Of a stretch of DNA of 64,000 nucleotides, positions 54,672 through 64,000 are shown piece by piece (the stretch's first letter is position 1; every line of letters begins with the position of its first letter). The position numbers and the translations under genes were made by a program. Where the stretch lies: positions 11,221-75,220 of the forward strand of contig JBAUEL010000110.1 in NCBI GenBank assembly GCA_049678585.1, in the 5' to 3' direction. Origin of the DNA: Dehalococcoidia bacterium (GTDB lineage Bacteria; Chloroflexota; Dehalococcoidia; DSTF01; CAZFGZ01). The notes under the pieces are model-generated. The model ran no database searches, was not told where the DNA came from, and saw only the letters and a list, made by a program, of their open reading frames with translations.

Positions 54672-55102
54672 GGCGCCGGGTCTATGTGTGGCGGTGGCAG
54701 GAACCGGGGAACGCCGGTGAGGACCGGCTGGTGGGGCTGCTGGTCCGGTTCGGCATCAACGCTGCGGCCCTGCTTCTGGCGGCTGAGTGGGTGCAGGGGG
54801 TAGAGGTCGGGGGCTGGCAGTCACTCCTCATCGCCGCCGCCCTCTTCGGTATCATCAACGCGCTCATTCGTCCCGTCGTGCTCGCTCTGAGCTGTCCCTT
54901 GCTGGTGCTGACGCTGGGGCTATTCACCCTGCTGGTGAACACGGCCATGCTGGCCCTCACTGTCTGGGTGTCCGGCCGCCTGAACCTCGAGTTCGAGGTG
55001 GACGGCTTTCGGGCAGCCTTCCTGGGCGCCCTGCTTATCAGCGCCGTCAGCGTGGTGCTCAGCGCGACGGTGGGTCGGAAGGTGCGGGAGGTCCTCAGGT
55101 AA
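54668..55102 (+). CDS. Phage-holin-4_2-like small membrane protein (4 TM)
   Basis: LVRFGINAAALLLAAEWVQGVEV ... LFGIINALIRPVVLALSCPLLVLTLGLFTLLVNTAMLALTVWV matches the conserved pattern of this family. Confidence 0.55.
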   Translation: MRRRVYVWRWQEPGNAGEDRLVGLLVRFGINAAALLLAAEWVQGVEVGGWQSLLIAAALFGIINALIRPVVLALSCPLLVLTLGLFTLLVNTAMLALTVWVSGRLNLEFEVDGFRAAFLGALLISAVSVVLSATVGRKVREVLR

Positions 55103-55467: not shown

Positions 55468-55496
55468 TTGACAGCAGCCATCGGAGGCCCTAAAAT
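55468..55496 (+). promoter_or_regulatory. Sigma70-like promoter (TTGACA-17-TAAAAT) upstream of the HTH regulator and tetrapyrrole operon
   Basis: An exact consensus -35 at 55468-55473 and a near-consensus -10 TAAAAT at 55491-55496 with a 17-nt spacer, in a locally AT-richer stretch. It is followed by the direct repeats TTGCCAGGATT (55517-55527) and TTGCCTAGATT (55536-55546). Confidence 0.4.
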
Positions 55497-55535
55497 TCTC
55501 AGTACAGTAGGCTTATTTGCCAGGATTAGCTAGTT

Positions 55536-56210
55536 TTGCCTAGATTTTCTCGGACCGGTTCTCCTCCCGTCCAGGCTCACGGCTCCTCTGAAGAGGAGCG
55601 CTGGCTGAGCCTGCGGGAGGCCTGTCGCCTGCTGGGGGTGGACGAGTCCACCCTCCGCCGCTGGGCCGACGGCGGTCACCTGCGCACCTTCCGCACCCCC
55701 GGCGGCCACCGGCGTTTCGCAGAATCGGACCTCCGGGACTTCCTGGCGCGGCGGGGCGGAGAGCATCAGGGCCATAAGGATGCCGGGGAGCTGGCGGCGG
55801 CACGCATTCGCCGGCACCTTCAGCGGGGCCGGGAGCACCAGGCAAGCTGGTACGCCAGCCTGGACGAGGAAAGCCGGAGACGGCTGCGACCGTTAGGGCG
55901 GCACCTGACCTCACTGGCGTCGGCATACCTGACCCAGAGGCGGCGTCGGTCGGCGCTGCTGGAGGAGGCCCGCGACACGGGGCGAGTGTACGGGCGGGAG
56001 CTTGCGGCCTCAGGGCTGCGCCTGTCCCAGACGGTGGAGGCGTTTGCCTTCTTCCGGCGGAGCCTGGCGCAGGCGGCCCGCGATGCCAGCCAGTCGAGCG
56101 GACCGTCGCTGGAGGCGGCCCTGGAGGCCTCCGAGCAGGTCACGGGACTGGCCGACGAGGTGCTGGCGGGCATCGCTGAGGCCTACGAGTCCCCGGCCGG
56201 ACAAAACTAG
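55536..56210 (+). CDS. Excisionase/MerR-like helix-turn-helix DNA-binding protein, a putative regulator. The start is uncertain (TTG 55536, or CTG 55605 preceded by GAGGAG).
   Basis: LSLREACRLLGVDESTLRRWADGGHLRTFRTPGGHRRF is a typical N-terminal HTH_17-type domain. It is followed by a roughly 150-aa Arg/Ala-rich helical domain. The stop lies 12 nt before the radical SAM gene. Confidence 0.55.
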   Translation: MPRFSRTGSPPVQAHGSSEEERWLSLREACRLLGVDESTLRRWADGGHLRTFRTPGGHRRFAESDLRDFLARRGGEHQGHKDAGELAAARIRRHLQRGREHQASWYASLDEESRRRLRPLGRHLTSLASAYLTQRRRRSALLEEARDTGRVYGRELAASGLRLSQTVEAFAFFRRSLAQAARDASQSSGPSLEAALEASEQVTGLADEVLAGIAEAYESPAGQN

Positions 56211-56222
56211 GACGGGGCAGAG

Positions 56223-57500
56223 ATGCTAGGGGTCACCAGACTGTTGTGCGGAACGGCCACACCGGGCGACGCCCTGCGCTTCGGAAGGGAGACGGGGCGG
56301 CTGCCTCCGCACCTCTTGCACTACTCCGAGGACAAGAGGCCGGTGGTGGTGTGGAACCTCACCCGCCGCTGCAACCTGCACTGCGCTCACTGCTACAGCG
56401 ACTCCCGGGACCGGGACTACGAGGGCGAGCTGAGCACCGCGGAGGCCAGGGGGGTCATCGATGACCTGGCGGCGTTCGGGGCGCCGGTGATCCTGTTCTC
56501 GGGCGGCGAGCCCCTCCTGCGGCCGGACCTGTTCGAGCTCATCCGCTACGCCCAGGAGCACGGCATCCGGGCGGTCCTCTCGACCAACGGCACCCTCATC
56601 ACCGGGGAGCTGGCCCGGGAGATGCAGGGCCTGGGCCTGTCCTACGTGGGGGTGAGCCTGGACGGGCCGGAGAAGGTCCATGACAAGTTCCGCGGCAAGA
56701 TAGGCGCCTTTCAGGAGAGCCTCCGGGGGATCCGTCACTGCCTGGAGGCGGGCCTGCGGGTGGGCCTGCGCATCACCCTCACTCAGTACAACGCCGGGCA
56801 CGTCGACTACTTCTTCGACCTCGTCGAGGAGGAAGGCATCCCCCGCATGTGCTTCTATCACCTGGCCTACGCGGGCCGGGGAGACCGCATCGTGAAGAGC
56901 GATCTCTCGCACGAGGAGACCCGGCGGGCCGTTGACCGCATCTTCGACCGAACTATCGACCTGCACCGCCGCGGCCTGACCAAGGACATCCTGACGGTGG
57001 ACAACCACACCGACGGCGTCTACCTGCACCTGAAGGTCCGGCAGGAGGAGCCCGAGCGGGCCGGGGAAGTCTACCAGCTCCTGCGCTGGAACGGGGGGAA
57101 CCAGTCGGGGGTGGCGGTAGCGGACATCGACAATCTGGGGAACGTGCACGCGGACCAGTTCTCCTGGCATTACAGTTTCGGGAACGTGCGGCAGCGTCCC
57201 TTCAGCCAGATCTGGATGGACACCTCGGACCCGGTGATGCGGGTGCTGAAGGACCGGCGGGGGCACATCAAGGGGAAGTGCTCGCGCTGCTCCTACTTCG
57301 AGATCTGCAACGGCAATCTCAGGGTGCGCGCCGAGTCCTACTACGGCGACCCCTGGGCGGAGGACCCGGCCTGCTACCTGACCGACGAAGAGCTGGGCAT
57401 CACGGAGCCCTACGAGCGGCTGAGGCCCGCGCACGGGCGGACGGACCCCTTCGCCCCTGCGGCAGCCGCTGGCGGCGACATCCCGAAAACGGTGGAGTAG
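56223..57500 (+). CDS. Radical SAM protein with a C-terminal SPASM/twitch Cys cluster, NirJ/AhbC/AhbD-like (tetrapyrrole-modifying family)
   Basis: WNLTRRCNLHCAHCYSD (CxxxCxxC), then GGEPLLRPD, and a C-terminal GKCSRCSYFEICNG auxiliary cluster. Its context is immediately upstream of sirC-hemA-hemC-cobA/hemD. Confidence 0.75.
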   Translation: MLGVTRLLCGTATPGDALRFGRETGRLPPHLLHYSEDKRPVVVWNLTRRCNLHCAHCYSDSRDRDYEGELSTAEARGVIDDLAAFGAPVILFSGGEPLLRPDLFELIRYAQEHGIRAVLSTNGTLITGELAREMQGLGLSYVGVSLDGPEKVHDKFRGKIGAFQESLRGIRHCLEAGLRVGLRITLTQYNAGHVDYFFDLVEEEGIPRMCFYHLAYAGRGDRIVKSDLSHEETRRAVDRIFDRTIDLHRRGLTKDILTVDNHTDGVYLHLKVRQEEPERAGEVYQLLRWNGGNQSGVAVADIDNLGNVHADQFSWHYSFGNVRQRPFSQIWMDTSDPVMRVLKDRRGHIKGKCSRCSYFEICNGNLRVRAESYYGDPWAEDPACYLTDEELGITEPYERLRPAHGRTDPFAPAAAAGGDIPKTVE

Positions 57501-57508
57501 GAGCAGCG

Positions 57509-58156
57509 GTGGCCTACTATCCCATCTTCCTGGAGCTTGCGGGGCGCCCCTGTCTGGTCATCGGCGGTGGCGAGGTAGCCCAGCGCAAGGCCGAGGGCCT
57601 GCTTCAGGCGGGGGCCTGGGTTCGCGTGATCAGCCCGACCCTGACGCCTGCCCTGGAGGCGCTGAAGGCGGAGGGGCGTCTCGACCACGTGGCCCGGGAG
57701 TACCGGGAGGGGGACCTGGAGGGCTGCGAGCTGTGCCTGGTGGCCACCGACGACAGATCGGTCAACGCCCGGGTGGCTCGGGAGGGCCGGCGCCGCCGGG
57801 TATGGGTCAACATCTCCGATGACCCCCGGAGCTGCGACTTCATCCTGCCTTCGGTCGTTCGGAAGGGCGAGGTAGTGGTGGCGGCATCCACCGGCGGGGC
57901 CAGCCCGGCCCTGGCGCGCCGCCTGCGGGAGGAGCTGGAGGCCTATCTATCGGAGGAGATCCCCGCCCTGGCGGAGCTCCTGCGAGAGGTACGGCAGGAG
58001 TTGCGCAAGGGGGGCATCTCGGTAGAGGCGGATGCCTGGCAACGGGCCATCGATGGGCGGCTGAGGGCGTTGCTGGCACAGGGGCGCTATGGCGAGGCCA
58101 GGACGCGCCTGCTGGCGTCGCTGGGGGTAAAGCCGGCCACCCGGAACGAGGTATAG
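57509..58156 (+). CDS. Precorrin-2 dehydrogenase / sirohydrochlorin ferrochelatase domain protein (siroheme synthase N-domain, SirC/Met8-like)
   Basis: YPIFLELAGRPCLVIGGGEVAQRKAEGLLQAGAWVRVISP is the characteristic N-terminal Rossmann domain of CysG-N/SirC. GTG start at 57509 with GGAG upstream. The ORF track extends to 57278 inside the previous gene. Confidence 0.75.
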   Translation: MAYYPIFLELAGRPCLVIGGGEVAQRKAEGLLQAGAWVRVISPTLTPALEALKAEGRLDHVAREYREGDLEGCELCLVATDDRSVNARVAREGRRRRVWVNISDDPRSCDFILPSVVRKGEVVVAASTGGASPALARRLREELEAYLSEEIPALAELLREVRQELRKGGISVEADAWQRAIDGRLRALLAQGRYGEARTRLLASLGVKPATRNEV

Positions 58157-58160
58157 GGCT

Positions 58161-59423
58161 GTGTACGCCTTGGTGGTAGGCATCAGCTACAAGACCGCCC
58201 CCGTGGAGGTGCGGGAGCGCTTCGCCTTCGGGACGGAGGATCTGCCTAGGGCGCTTCCGCGGCTAGGCCGAGAGTTCGGGGGCGCGGCCATCCTCTCCAC
58301 CTGCAACCGCACGGAGGTGTACGTGACAGCATCGCAGGCCCTGACGGATGCCCGGCCGGTGCTGCGGGTGCTGGCCGAGCTGAAGGGCGCCTGCGGACCT
58401 CGCATCGATGCCTCCTATATGTACAACGGCAGCGAGGCGGCCCGTCACCTCTTTCGGGTGGCAGCGGGGGTCGAGTCAATGGTGCTGGGCGAAGCGGAGA
58501 TCCTGGGTCAGGTGCGGACGGCCTTCGCGGCGGCTATGGCGGCAGGCACCTCCGACCCTTTGCTCTCGCGGCTGTTCCGCTCGGCCATCCGGGTAGGTCG
58601 GAGGGCCCGCAGCCAGACGAACATCAGCCGCCATGCCGTATCGGTCAGTTCCACGGCGGTGTCTTTGGCCCGCCGGACCCTGGGTGACCTGGCCTCCCGC
58701 ACCGTGCTGGTGGTGAGCGCAGGCGAGGCGGGCAAGCTGACCGCGCGCAACCTGGCGGAGCGAGGAGCCTCGCGCATCCTGGTGACCAGCCGGACCTTCG
58801 ACCGGGCTGTACAGCTTGCCGCCGATCTCGGCGGCACCGCCGTGCCCTTCGAGGGCCTGGGGGAGGCGCTGGCCCGGTCGGACATCATCATTACCTCCAC
58901 GGGGGCCCCGAGCTTCCTCATCGGGCCGGAGCTGATGGGGGAAGTGGTGGCCCAGCGCGACGCCCGGCCCCTGCTGCTCATCGACATAGCGGTCCCCAGG
59001 GACGTGGACCCGGCGGTGCGGGAGTTGCCGCACGTGCACCTATACGACATCGATGACCTCCGGGCGGTCTCGGAGGAGAACCTGGAGGCGCGTCAGCGAG
59101 AGGTGGAGAAGGTGGAGGCCCTGGTAGAGGAGGAGATGGTGCGCTTCAGCGAGTGGTGGCGCTCCCGGGGGGTCATCCCCACGGTAGCGGCGCTGCGGGA
59201 GAGGGCCGAGCAGATCCGGCGGGAGGAAGTGGCGCGTACCCTGAGGCGGCTGCCGGACCTCTCGGAGGAGGAGCGGCGGCGGGTGGAGGCCATGGCCTCG
59301 GCCATCGTCAAGAAGCTGCTGCACGCTCCCATCGTCTACCTAAAGTCCTCGGGCGATGCCGAGCGTCATACCTCCGCCCTGCGCGAGCTGTTCGACCTGG
59401 ACCGGCCCGCCACGGAGGAGTGA
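58161..59423 (+). CDS. hemA: Glutamyl-tRNA reductase
   Basis: VVGISYKTAPVEVRERFAF ... ILSTCNRTEVY (catalytic Cys), plus an NADPH-binding domain and a C-terminal dimerisation helix. GTG start. Confidence 0.9.
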   Translation: MYALVVGISYKTAPVEVRERFAFGTEDLPRALPRLGREFGGAAILSTCNRTEVYVTASQALTDARPVLRVLAELKGACGPRIDASYMYNGSEAARHLFRVAAGVESMVLGEAEILGQVRTAFAAAMAAGTSDPLLSRLFRSAIRVGRRARSQTNISRHAVSVSSTAVSLARRTLGDLASRTVLVVSAGEAGKLTARNLAERGASRILVTSRTFDRAVQLAADLGGTAVPFEGLGEALARSDIIITSTGAPSFLIGPELMGEVVAQRDARPLLLIDIAVPRDVDPAVRELPHVHLYDIDDLRAVSEENLEARQREVEKVEALVEEEMVRFSEWWRSRGVIPTVAALRERAEQIRREEVARTLRRLPDLSEEERRRVEAMASAIVKKLLHAPIVYLKSSGDAERHTSALRELFDLDRPATEE

Positions 59424-59424
59424 G

Positions 59425-60351
59425 GTGCGCGATCCGCTGGTAAGGGTCGGCAGCCGGGGCAGTCAGCTAGCCCTGCGCCAGACTGAGCAGGTGGTGGCGG
59501 CGCTGCGGCGCTTCCATCCGGGCGTTGAGTTCCGGGTGTACCCGGTGCGCACAGAGGGCGATCGCCGCGCGCGAGCGCCTCTGTCCCGCATCGGCGGCCA
59601 GGGTGTGTTCGTTCGCGAGCTGGAGGCGCGGCTGGCAACAGGCGAGGTGGACCTGGCGGTGCACAGCCTCAAGGACGTGCCCACGGAGCTGGCTCTGGGC
59701 TTGACCCTGGCGGCCGTTCCCGCGCGGGAGGACCCCGGCGATGCCCTGGTGAGCCGCCGGGGCCTGCGCCTGGCCGAGCTGCCGGCGGGCGCGCGGGTGG
59801 GCACAGGGAGCGCTCGACGGGCCGTGCAGGCGCGGGCCTTGCGGCCGGACCTGGAGTACGTCGATATAAGGGGCAACGTGGACACCCGCCTGCGGCGGGT
59901 GCGCGAAGGCTCAGTAGACGCGGTCATCCTGGCGGCGGCGGGACTGGCCCGCCTGGGCCGGCTGGGGGAGGCGGCGGAGGTGCTGGACGTCGAGACGATG
60001 CTACCCGCGGCCGGGCAGGGCGCCCTGGCGGTGGAGGCGCGGACTGACGACGCCGAGCTCTGCGCCTTGGTCGCCCCGCTGGAAGATCGGGAGACGCGGG
60101 CGGCGGCAGAGGCGGAGCGAGCCTTCCTCCGGCGCCTGGGGGCCGGCTGTCGGCTGCCCGTGGGAGCCCTCGGCGAGGTGGGGGGTCCGACCCTGCGCCT
60201 GCGCGCCCTCATCGCCGACGGGCAGGGAGAGCGCATCCTGCGCGAGGAGCTGACCGGTCGCCCCGAGGAGGCCGAGGCCCTGGGAACTCGCCTGGCCGAG
60301 AGGCTGCTTGCCCTGGGCGCGGACGAGTTCATGGCGGAGTCAGTGCGGTGA
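59425..60351 (+). CDS. hemC: Hydroxymethylbilane synthase (porphobilinogen deaminase)
   Basis: VRVGSRGSQLALRQT ... AVHSLKDVPT ... dipyrromethane cofactor Cys in GAGCRLPVG. GTG start at 59425 with RBS GGAGGAG directly after the hemA stop. Confidence 0.9.
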   Translation: MRDPLVRVGSRGSQLALRQTEQVVAALRRFHPGVEFRVYPVRTEGDRRARAPLSRIGGQGVFVRELEARLATGEVDLAVHSLKDVPTELALGLTLAAVPAREDPGDALVSRRGLRLAELPAGARVGTGSARRAVQARALRPDLEYVDIRGNVDTRLRRVREGSVDAVILAAAGLARLGRLGEAAEVLDVETMLPAAGQGALAVEARTDDAELCALVAPLEDRETRAAAEAERAFLRRLGAGCRLPVGALGEVGGPTLRLRALIADGQGERILREELTGRPEEAEALGTRLAERLLALGADEFMAESVR

Positions 60352-61877
60352 AGGCATCGGGCAAGGTATGGCTGGTGGGGGCGGGCCCGGGTGACCCTGG
60401 GCTCCTCACGCTGGCGGGCGCGGCCTGCCTGGCCCGGGCAGAGGTGGTGTTGTACGACCGCCTGGTACACCCTCGCCTGCTCGACCTCGCCCCTGCCGGG
60501 GCCGAGCGCATCTACGTGGGCAAGCAGGCGGGCGGCCACACCCTCACCCAGGACGAGATCAACGCCCTCCTGGTGGCCAGGGCGTGCGAAGGGAAGCGGG
60601 TCGTGCGGCTGAAGGGCGGCGACCCCTACGTGTTCGGACGCGGGGGCGAGGAGGCCGAGGCGCTGGTCGCTGCGGGCGTCCCCTTCGAGGTGGTGCCGGG
60701 CGTGACCTCGGCGGTGGCCGCGCCGGCCTATGCGGGCATCCCTGTGACCCATCGGGGGCTGGCGTCGTCTGTGGCCGTGGTCACCGGCCACGAGGATGCG
60801 GCCAAGGAGGAGTCAAGCATCGACTGGGCGAGGCTGGCTACCGGCGTGGACACCCTGGTGCTGCTGATGGGCGTGGCCAACCTGCCCGACATCGCCGAGC
60901 AGCTCGTGCGGCACGGCCGGCCCCCCGAGACTCCGGCCGCCGTCATCGAGTGGGGGACGCTACCGCGGCAGCGCACGGTGTCGGGCACGCTCGGGGACAT
61001 CGCCCGGCGGGCCGCCGAGGCGGGCCTGCAGCCGCCCGCGGTGACGGTAGTAGGCGAGGTGGCCGGCCTGCGCGAGACCCTGCGCTGGTTCGACAATCGC
61101 CCTCTCTTCGGGAAGCGGGTGCTGGTGACGCGCACCCGGCGGCAGGCGAGCGCCCTCTCGCAGGCCCTGGCCGAGGCGGGTGCGGAGCCCATCGAGCTGC
61201 CCACCATCGAGATCGAGCCGCGGGCCGACCCCGGCGCGGTGCAGGCAGCCCTCGACGCCCTGCGGGCCGGAGCATACGCCTGGGCCCTCTTCACCAGCGC
61301 CAACGGCGTGGAGCTGTTCTTCGGGCACCTGCGGGAGCGGGGCCTGGACGCTCGCGCCTTCGGCTCGGCTATGGTGGCGGCCATCGGCCCCGGCACCGCC
61401 GAGGCTCTGGCCGGCGAGGGCATTGCGGCGGACCTGGTGCCGGAGGATTTCTTGGCCGAGGGGCTGCTCCGAGCGCTGGCCGAACATGAGATGGCAGACC
61501 GGCGGGTGCTCGTGCCGAGGGCGGAGGGCGCGCGGCGCGAGCTGATCGAGGGGCTGGAGGCCCAAGGCGCCCGGGTGGACGAGCTGACCCTGTACCGCTC
61601 GGCGGTACCGCGCGAGCCGGACGCCGAGGGCCTGCGACGCCTGCGGGCGGGCGAGCTGGACATCGTGACCTTTGCCAGCTCCTCGGCGGTGCGCAACCTC
61701 GCGGAAATGCTAGGCGACAACCCGGAGCCGCTGCGGCGGCCCCTCATCGCCTGCATCGGGCCGGTCACGGCGCAGGCGGCGGAGGAGCTTGGCTTGACCG
61801 TCGGGCTCGTATCGGAGGAGCATACCATCCCGGGGCTGGTGCGTGCGCTGGAGGAGAAGTATCGGTCGGAAGGATAG
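60348..61877 (+). CDS. cobA/hemD: Bifunctional uroporphyrinogen-III C-methyltransferase / uroporphyrinogen-III synthase fusion
   Basis: N-terminal SUMT (VWLVGAGPGDPGLLTL ... VVRLKGGDPYVFGRGGEE ... GVPFEVVPGVTSA). C-terminal HemD-like domain (KRVLVTRTRRQASALSQALAEAGAEPIELPTIEI ...). The GTG start overlaps the hemC stop (GTGA). Confidence 0.85.
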   Translation: MKASGKVWLVGAGPGDPGLLTLAGAACLARAEVVLYDRLVHPRLLDLAPAGAERIYVGKQAGGHTLTQDEINALLVARACEGKRVVRLKGGDPYVFGRGGEEAEALVAAGVPFEVVPGVTSAVAAPAYAGIPVTHRGLASSVAVVTGHEDAAKEESSIDWARLATGVDTLVLLMGVANLPDIAEQLVRHGRPPETPAAVIEWGTLPRQRTVSGTLGDIARRAAEAGLQPPAVTVVGEVAGLRETLRWFDNRPLFGKRVLVTRTRRQASALSQALAEAGAEPIELPTIEIEPRADPGAVQAALDALRAGAYAWALFTSANGVELFFGHLRERGLDARAFGSAMVAAIGPGTAEALAGEGIAADLVPEDFLAEGLLRALAEHEMADRRVLVPRAEGARRELIEGLEAQGARVDELTLYRSAVPREPDAEGLRRLRAGELDIVTFASSSAVRNLAEMLGDNPEPLRRPLIACIGPVTAQAAEELGLTVGLVSEEHTIPGLVRALEEKYRSEG

Positions 61878-61887
61878 GAGGCGGCTG

Positions 61888-62298
61888 ATGGCACCCGAGA
61901 CAACCCTTCGCCTGACCCATGTGCGCCTGCTGGTCAAGGACTTCGCGGCCTGCTTTCGCTTCTACCGCGACGTGCTGGGATTCGAGGTGCTGTGGGGCGA
62001 GGAGAAGGGCCGCTACGCCGACTTCCGCGCCGGCGACGCCATCGTGGCCCTCTACAAGCGCGGTCTGATGGCTGAGGCAGTGGGGGAGGCGGAGAAGCCG
62101 TCGGAGGCCGAGGCGCAGGACCGGGCCGCCCTCATCTTCGCCGTCGAGGACGTGGACGCAACGTACGAGAGCCTGAAGACGAAGGGCGTGACATTCGTTA
62201 CGGAGCCGACGGACCGGCCGGACTGGGGCATCCGCGCGGCCCACTTCCGCGACCCCGACGGCAATCTGCTGGAGATCTACAGGGACCTGGGGGCGTGA
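61888..62298 (+). CDS. VOC-family (glyoxalase/bleomycin-resistance/dioxygenase fold) protein
   Basis: LTHVRLLVKDFAACFRFYRDVLGFEV ... HFRDPDGNLLEIY. RBS GGAGG precedes ATG 61888. Confidence 0.7.
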   Translation: MAPETTLRLTHVRLLVKDFAACFRFYRDVLGFEVLWGEEKGRYADFRAGDAIVALYKRGLMAEAVGEAEKPSEAEAQDRAALIFAVEDVDATYESLKTKGVTFVTEPTDRPDWGIRAAHFRDPDGNLLEIYRDLGA

Positions 62299-62377: not shown

Positions 62378-63019
62378 ATGCGGACTAAGACACTACTGCC
62401 TGCAGTTTCGTTCGAGCGACTGTTCAAGACGGGTCACGGGCCTAGAGACAAGTTCCTATCCCGCCTTTTTGGCATATTCGGTGAAGAGATTGTTCGAGTG
62501 TGGTCTCGCTGTAGACAGGCGCCTTATGAAGACATTGGGCGGCCCACAGTCAAACGTCCCGGCGAATCGAGAGGCAAGACTCTAGACTTCACCTTCAAAT
62601 CCCGGACGGATGGCCGGCTCTTCGTCGGTGAGATGAAGTGTGAGCTGGAGTTTGAGAACTATCGCTACCTAAGATTGACCGACCACTGGCAACTGGATCA
62701 CCACAGAACTGATGCCTTCCTGCGGTTCCGTGACCTAGCACGAAATCCTGAGGCCTACAGTGTCACTGTGAATGGGAAGCATGTTTCGCCTGCAGGAGCG
62801 ATCCTGGTTTGGGGCAGCGTTACAAGCGAAGGGCGAAGCGATGTAAAGCAAGCTACCGACGTGGCGGATGTCCTATCAGTGGAGGACATGATTGGTGACC
62901 TGCTCGTGTGGAATTCTGTAGAGTACAAGACATTCATCCAGGCACGGGGCCAGTGGTGTGGGGATTTGTTTGGCATACTTGCGGGACGCGGCCAGCCAAT
63001 TAGAGAGGTTCCATCATGA
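62378..63019 (+). CDS. Hypothetical protein encoded in a low-GC island, with a possible PD-(D/E)xK nuclease-like motif
   Basis: 213-aa ORF with clearly lower GC than its neighbours (about 50% vs about 70% by eye). It uses AGA, AAA, ATA and TTT codons that are rare elsewhere in the window. It has a candidate D...E-x-K motif (TLDFTF ... LFVGEMKCE). Its stop overlaps the hemB ATG. Confidence 0.5.
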
Positions 63020-64000
63020 CCACCAGTACCCTCCCGCTCGTTCTCCGCCGCTTCCGGCGGCTGCGGCGGACGGAGGCGCTGCGCGAGCTCGCCCGCGAGA
63101 CGCGGCTCTCGGCGCAGGACTTCGTCTATCCGCTGTTCGTCAGGCACGGGTCGGGCGTGCGCGAGGAGATCACGTCGATGCCCGGCCAGTATCACCTCTC
63201 GCTGGACCAGCTCGCCGCGGAGGCCGAGGAGCTGCGCTCGCTGGGCATCCCTGCGGTCCTCCTGTTCGGCCTGCCCGCGGCCAAGGACGAGGTGGGCTCG
63301 GAGGCCTACGCCGAGGACGGGATCGTCCAGCGGGCGGTGCGCGCGCTCAAGGACACCGCACCCGACCTGGCCGTCATCACCGACGTCTGCCTCTGCGAGT
63401 ACACCAGCCACGGCCACTGCGGCGTGGTCGTGAACGGCGAGGTGGACAACGACGCCACCCTGGAGCTGCTGACGCGCACGGCCGTCTCCCACGCCCGCGC
63501 CGGCGCCGACATGGTGGCGCCGTCAGACATGATGGACGGTCGGGTGGCCGCCATCCGGCGCGCCCTCGACGAGGGGGGCTTCGCTCAGACGCCCATCCTG
63601 GCCTACGCGGCCAAGTACGCCTCGGCCTTCTACGGCCCCTTCAGGGAGGCCGCGGAGTCGGCGCCCGCCTTCGGGGACCGTCGCGGCTACCAGATGGACC
63701 CGCCCAACGTGCGGGAGGCCCTGCGGGAGATGGAGGCGGACCTCCAGGAAGGGGCGGATATCCTCATGGTAAAGCCCGCCCTGGCCTACCTGGACGTGCT
63801 GGCGCGGGCCAGGCAGCGCTTCGAGGTGCCCCTGGCGGCCTACAACGTGTCGGGGGAGTACGCGATGGTGAAGGCGGCGGCCGCTCAGGGCTGGCTCGAG
63901 GGCCCGCGGGTGGCCCTGGAGATACTCACGGCCATCAAGCGAGCCGGCGCCGATATCATCATCACCTATCACGCGAAGGAGGCGGCCCGCTGGCTGCGCG
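63016..64000 (+). CDS. hemB: Porphobilinogen synthase (delta-aminolevulinate dehydratase), 3'-truncated by the window end
   Basis: N-terminal [29 protein letters not shown]. Zn-binding Cys triad [33 protein letters not shown] active-site region. The frame is open to position 64000. Confidence 0.85.

Follow-up and report, generated by a model that had tools for sequence, protein, structure and literature searches.

The operon analyzed here lies on the forward strand of a contig from a Dehalococcoidia bacterium (Chloroflexota), at the end of the window, the 64-kb (64,000-nucleotide) stretch of DNA that was examined as a whole. A promoter is followed, in tight packing, by the genes for a helix-turn-helix (HTH) regulator, a radical SAM enzyme, SirC, HemA, HemC and a CobA-HemD fusion (Table 1). 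This gene order had been proposed in an earlier note, and the profile matches bear out both the coordinates and the identities. Intergenic gaps from the HTH gene to cobA-hemD do not exceed 12 nt, or are replaced by a 4-nt overlap, and no terminator-like sites were found between positions 55000 and 62500. The operon end originally placed at 61877 is too short, as a VOC gene, an orphan ORF (orf213) and hemB come after it, with hemL following in the same species. A tblastn match to hemB is 100% identical over 63115-63999. On the same-species MAG contig L091, the ALAD protein of 333 aa is followed by an Aminotran_3 protein of 430 aa (hemL) and dnaN. The genome had been described as Actinobacteria- or Chloroflexi-like; the label of the record supports the second assignment and not the first.

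Table 1. Features of the operon and its leader region, with positions in the 64-kb window
Feature	Position	Strand	Remarks
Sigma-70-type promoter, TTGACA-17 nt-TAAAAT	55468..55496	+	11/12 consensus positions
Putative operator, four ~10-bp head-to-tail direct repeats	55514..55553	+	TATTTGCCAG GATTAGCTAG TTTTGCCTAG ATTTTCTCGG
Regulator gene	55536..56210	+	224 aa; BldC/excisionase-type winged HTH at residues ~23-73; sensor-globin-like helical domain at ~80-220
ahbC orthologue (predicted 12,18-didecarboxysiroheme deacetylase = Fe-coproporphyrin III synthase)	56223..57500	+	425 aa; TIGR04546, 586.6 bits
sirC, CysG N-terminal-type precorrin-2 dehydrogenase	57509..58156	+	215 aa; TIGR01470 cysG_Nterm, 165 bits (cutoff 62)
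hemA, glutamyl-tRNA reductase	58161..59423	+	TIGR01035, 423 bits (cutoff 210)
hemC, hydroxymethylbilane synthase	59425..60351	+	TIGR00212, 330 bits (cutoff 164)
cobA-hemD fusion, uroporphyrinogen-III C-methyltransferase and uroporphyrinogen-III synthase	60348..61877	+	Pfam TP_methylase at residues 6-218, HEM4 at 269-498; TIGR01469, 330 bits
VOC/glyoxalase-family gene, within operon	61888..62298	+	Pfam Glyoxalase, E 2.4e-26
orf213, orphan ORF	62378..63019	+	213 aa; between cobA-hemD and hemB; insertion spot variable
hemB, porphobilinogen synthase	63016..64000	+	truncated by window end; frame translation

Start codons of sirC, hemC and the VOC gene were taken from gene calls of a MAG, of L001 and of L091, respectively. 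The sirC product also matches Pfam NAD_binding_7 and Sirohm_synth_M, and possibly has sirohydrochlorin ferrochelatase activity too. The order ahbC-sirC-hemA-hemC-cobA/hemD-...-hemB(-hemL) is retained in the relatives L003, L005, L086 and L178, and a VOC-type gene is also found in or near the hem operon of L003/L004 and L177. Searches of orf213 against Pfam, NCBIfam and PADLOC gave no match. Its exact protein was found on three contigs only, one from the same-species MAG GCA_049678065.1 and two short Logan contigs, all with the local gene order of the window. The window also encodes an aldehyde:ferredoxin oxidoreductase.

The leader of the operon displays two kinds of conserved elements. The near-consensus sigma70 promoter reported ahead of the operon holds up, with 2 promoter-like sites observed in the region against 0.3 expected. 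At the corresponding position, the orthologous HTH genes of L086, L003, L005, L175 and L177 are likewise preceded by a TTGAC -35 box and a TA.AAT -10 box. The pair of 11-bp direct repeats reported with it is present as a repeat, but its length and exactness need correction: TTTGCCAGGATT (55516-55527) and TTTGCCTAGATT (55535-55546) are 12 nt long with a 19-nt spacing and match at 10 of 12 positions. The region is better described by the four ~10-bp units of Table 1, an array that overlaps the TTG start codon of the HTH gene (55536). A AGATTTGCC.AG.TTT block is kept in five relatives, while the rest of the leaders have diverged, and the self-similarity at lag 10 reaches a z of 6.7 across 11 upstream regions of the regulator family. 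BldC recognizes the site AATTxxxx(C) and binds it head to tail (PMC5859096). Conservation in relatives and the fit to a BldC-type direct-repeat operator hence support the proposal that the repeats might be an operator for the HTH protein, and the leader sequence suggests that the regulator would bind the 10-bp units.

By fold and sequence, the HTH domain of the regulator is a BldC-type winged HTH. Its N-terminal ~50 residues share 40-43% identity with BldC and superpose at 1.1-1.6 A. The protein misses the NCBIfam NF033787 (BldC) cutoff, at 51.7 vs 77 bits, and is not a single domain of ~68 aa but a 224-aa protein with a second domain. It may therefore bind DNA in a BldC-like manner, yet not be BldC in the strict sense. 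The C-terminal domain displays a globin fold. Among 42 family members, no invariant or nearly invariant His occurs in residues 80-220, making classical heme ligation doubtful. Regulators of this two-domain family also stand at the head of hem operons in L005, L086, L175, L177 and L089; clustered at 50% identity, the family has at least ~150 full-length representatives. The combination of a BldC-like HTH with a sensor-globin fold is an undescribed regulator type, found across Chloroflexota at the start of hem operons belonging to either heme route.

The radical SAM protein had been described as NirJ/AhbC/AhbD-like, of which the AhbC part stands: model scores, both cluster motifs and tree placement identify it, at the level of sequence, as specifically an AhbC orthologue. 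Its best match is TIGR04546 (AhbC), aligned over residues 2-391 to model positions 1-390, as compared with 546.6 bits for NirJ1, 442 for NirJ (TIGR04051) and 224 for AhbD. The alignment covers the N-terminal ~38 residues missing from the NirJ model. The radical SAM motif CX3CX2C (C50-N-L-H-C54-A-H-C57) is invariant in 16 homologues and lies in a protein with a Pfam Radical_SAM match (E 1.9e-29), and all cysteines of the auxiliary cluster motif C353x2C356x5C362x21C384 are invariant as well. A CX2CX5CX20-21C motif has been described for NirJ and AhbC (PMC10114771), and we count this agreement of the cysteine motifs as support for the AhbC identity. The NCBIfam equivalog cutoff for AhbC (650 bits) is formally missed. 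This shortfall can be best explained as a lineage effect of the model, because the AhbCs of L096 and L088, which adjoin AhbA/B/D, score lower still (563.6 and 557.5 bits); the neighbors of these same-class AhbCs pass the AhbA (NF040708) and AhbB (NF040707) cutoffs.

A phylogeny of the radical SAM protein had been suggested as a check. In our neighbor-joining tree, it is nested among AhbCs with Ahb partners. The protein, an end-to-end match to the AhbC model, is not NirJ, AhbD, PqqE or MftC. The target clade, within which AhbC identities range from 72 to 93% with every cluster cysteine invariant, includes L088, whose ahbC is 76% identical and is followed by an AhbD::AhbA::AhbB fusion. Its sister group (L096, L097, L009, L010 and L017) has operons of the form sirC-hemA/C-cobA/hemD-hemB-ahbD-ahbC-ahbAB(::hemL). 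Homologues with 64-72% identity are named 'Fe-coproporphyrin III synthase' or '12,18-didecarboxysiroheme deacetylase' in IMG. AhbC activity has been assayed only for the M. barkeri enzyme, in cell extracts (PMC10114771). For the enzyme of the window, conversion of didecarboxysiroheme to coproheme is predicted from its sequence.

A comparison with 80 AhbD loci from Chloroflexota, Acidobacteriota and others allows the gene set to be placed among the known routes. The coproporphyrin type (hemY/H/Q) is represented by 45 of these loci and the Ahb type by 3, with no locus showing both. The regulator family occurs in 19 of the 80. The siroheme synthesis genes of the window are present as the cobA domain of the fusion and as SirC/CysG-N, which scores above its cutoff. 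Among the 80 loci, sirC and a CobA domain are restricted to the Ahb type, together with ahbC, and never accompany hemY, hemH or hemQ; the window therefore bears the signature of the siroheme route. This agrees with the original siroheme-dependent reading, as the combination of sirC, cobA-hemD and ahbC was seen only in siroheme-route operons among related loci.

The remaining heme genes were searched for in the window and around the operon. Using Pfam on the main ORFs and seeded tblastn, we found no hemE, hemY, hemH, hemQ, ahbA/B or ahbD in the 64-kb window, which upholds the earlier statement on the first four. The ~10-kb flanks of the operon likewise showed no ahbA/B, ahbD or hemE/Y/H/Q, either on the same-species contigs L001 and L091 or in the four relatives L003, L005, L086 and L178. 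Within the target clade, ahbD and ahbAB adjoin ahbC in L088 only. The closest unfused AhbDs found share 59-71% identity with the AhbD domain of L088, and none could be tied to the genome of the window. We infer that AhbA/B and AhbD are present elsewhere in this genome and complete the pathway.

From these observations, the locus is probably the central tetrapyrrole operon of this bacterium of the class Dehalococcoidia (Chloroflexota), and it would serve the oxygen-independent, siroheme-dependent (Ahb) way of making heme. One promoter would drive regulator-ahbC-sirC-hemA-hemC-cobA/hemD-VOC-orf213-hemB-hemL. HemA, HemL, HemB, HemC and HemD would lead to uroporphyrinogen III, which the fused CobA would methylate to precorrin-2. 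The CysG-N-type SirC would oxidize precorrin-2 to sirohydrochlorin and probably also insert iron, yielding siroheme. Siroheme decarboxylase AhbA/B, presumably encoded elsewhere in the genome, would convert siroheme to didecarboxysiroheme. Using radical SAM chemistry, AhbC of the operon would cleave the two acetate side chains off this compound and so form coproheme. The last step, from coproheme to heme b, would fall to AhbD, likewise expected elsewhere in the genome.

Alternatively, heme could be made via a coproporphyrin-dependent route encoded elsewhere (hemE, hemY/cgoX, cpfC, chdC and/or AhbD), as in many Anaerolineae, with sirC/cobA serving only siroheme or cobalamin and the AhbC-like enzyme being a relic or acting on another substrate. 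Other Chloroflexota commonly have coproporphyrin-route operons that carry AhbD and begin with a regulator of this family, such as HTH-ahbD-hemQ-hemH-hemY in L089, and the genome of the window could have one; the coproporphyrin type also prevails among the AhbD loci, and in five target-clade genomes the surroundings of the operon showed neither ahbAB nor ahbD. However, none of the coproporphyrin-type loci contains sirC, the CobA domain or ahbC. The AhbC of the clade has retained its conservation and its cluster cysteines, holds the place of first structural gene of the hem operon behind the regulator, and adjoins AhbD::AhbAB in L088, inside the clade. Deprived of didecarboxysiroheme, it would have no known substrate. 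We thus regard this alternative as unlikely.

A hybrid or dual route, in which AhbA/B and AhbC make coproheme anaerobically and ChdC (HemQ) finishes instead of or alongside AhbD, or in which both full routes serve oxic and anoxic growth, appears quite unlikely. Coproheme is an intermediate common to both routes, which AhbD or ChdC can each finish (PMC7242693, PMC10114771), and AhbD occurs together with hemQ in 15 of the 80 loci. The confinement of an ahbD near ahbC to L088 within the target clade would also fit. Nevertheless, ahbC accompanies hemQ/H/Y in none of the sampled loci, and the aldehyde:ferredoxin oxidoreductase of the window hints at an anaerobic lifestyle, in which an H2O2-dependent ChdC would be of little use. 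Heme d1 chemistry for a cd1 nitrite reductase, which had also been considered, is highly improbable: NirJ is the closest characterized AhbC paralogue with the same substrate (PMC10114771), and IMG labels some 67%-identical homologues 'NirJ', but the 442 bits on TIGR04051 lie below both the AhbC score and the NirJ cutoff of 515, the AhbC-specific N-terminal extension is present, and nirS, nirF and nirN were not seen in the window or in the locus gene lists of relatives, where the conserved neighbors are hem genes.

The siroheme-dependent reading places the operon beside the Ahb pathway of Desulfovibrio vulgaris/desulfuricans and Methanosarcina barkeri. The window shares with it an AhbC orthologue in which the two Fe-S cluster motifs are present, and its siroheme-forming cobA and sirC stand in one transcription unit with ahbC. 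In contrast to those systems, a regulator is immediately followed by ahbC as the first structural gene, neither ahbA/B nor ahbD is found in cis, and the AhbC falls below the curated cutoff. More distant homologues (55-60% identity) occur in ahbC-hemB-ahbD arrangements, which resemble the Desulfovibrio locus. NirJ of heme d1 biosynthesis is a homologous radical SAM/SPASM-type enzyme; AhbC likewise acts on didecarboxysiroheme, but the AhbC of the window differs from NirJ in its N-terminal extension, its weaker match to the NirJ model (442 vs 587 bits) and the lack of a nir context.

Reviews still place the Ahb route in archaea and sulfate reducers (PMC7242693, PMC10114771), whereas the host here belongs to the Chloroflexota. 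The earlier note had considered the route unusual for such a genome, which is overstated. The best 120 AhbC homologues listed all have at least 64% identity, and those with a named source are Dehalococcoidia, Chloroflexota or Armatimonadota MAGs. Complete Ahb operons occur in the same class, in CP070630.1 'Dehalococcoidia bacterium bin98' (L096) and SM23_28_2 (L097). These share sirC, the cobA-hemD fusion, hemB and hemL with the window, and their AhbCs are 62-64% identical to that of the window. Their order is ...hemB-ahbD-ahbC-ahbAB::hemL, and a regulator of this family was not detected in the fetched flanks, whereas the operon of the window has ahbC at its head, contains the regulator and carries neither ahbD nor ahbAB. 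The Ahb route, common in Dehalococcoidia MAGs, is rather ordinary as a pathway, and the lineage that carries it here is under-described.

Compared with this known pathway, the regulator is the fresher result. BldC of Streptomyces, a MerR-like winged HTH of 68 aa (PDB 6ama, 6amk), occupies direct repeats in a head-to-tail arrangement, and the candidate operator here is similarly a run of ~10-bp direct repeats with an AT start, compare AATTxxxx(C). Unlike BldC, a single domain without a sensor, the regulator has a 140-residue globin-like domain, and its association is with heme operons instead of development. We compared it with the globin-coupled sensors DosC, BpeGReg, AfGcHK and HemAT, and with the non-heme relatives RsbR N-domain and pXO2-61. 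In sensor globins, the sensor is N-terminal to a kinase, cyclase or STAS domain, whereas here it is C-terminal to the DNA-binding output; in contrast to the heme-binding globin-coupled sensors, the family has no conserved proximal His.

We hypothesize that the four repeats, placed between the -10 box and the start codon of the regulator gene, are most likely bound by the regulator in head-to-tail fashion, and that it would thereby autoregulate the whole operon in response to a putative ligand. A wider reading, in which this undescribed family is a Chloroflexota-wide master feedback regulator of heme biosynthesis and the clade has a split or hybrid Ahb pathway, is tentative, and we consider it possible at best. 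If true, the regulator would polymerize head to tail on the 10-bp direct repeats overlapping its start codon, its His-less globin pocket would sense a tetrapyrrole (heme, coproheme or a precursor), and the family would control siroheme-route and coproporphyrin-route operons alike. AhbC would be co-transcribed with the precursor genes, and ahbAB and ahbD (or chdC) would be under separate control. The coproporphyrin-route hem operons with AhbD of Anaerolineae, Caldilineales and Ardenticatenaceae (e.g. L105, L115, L153) share with the window the regulator family, the promoter/direct-repeat leader, hemA, hemC, hemD, hemB and hemL; they lack its sirC, CobA domain and ahbC, and carry hemY, hemH, hemQ and ahbD.

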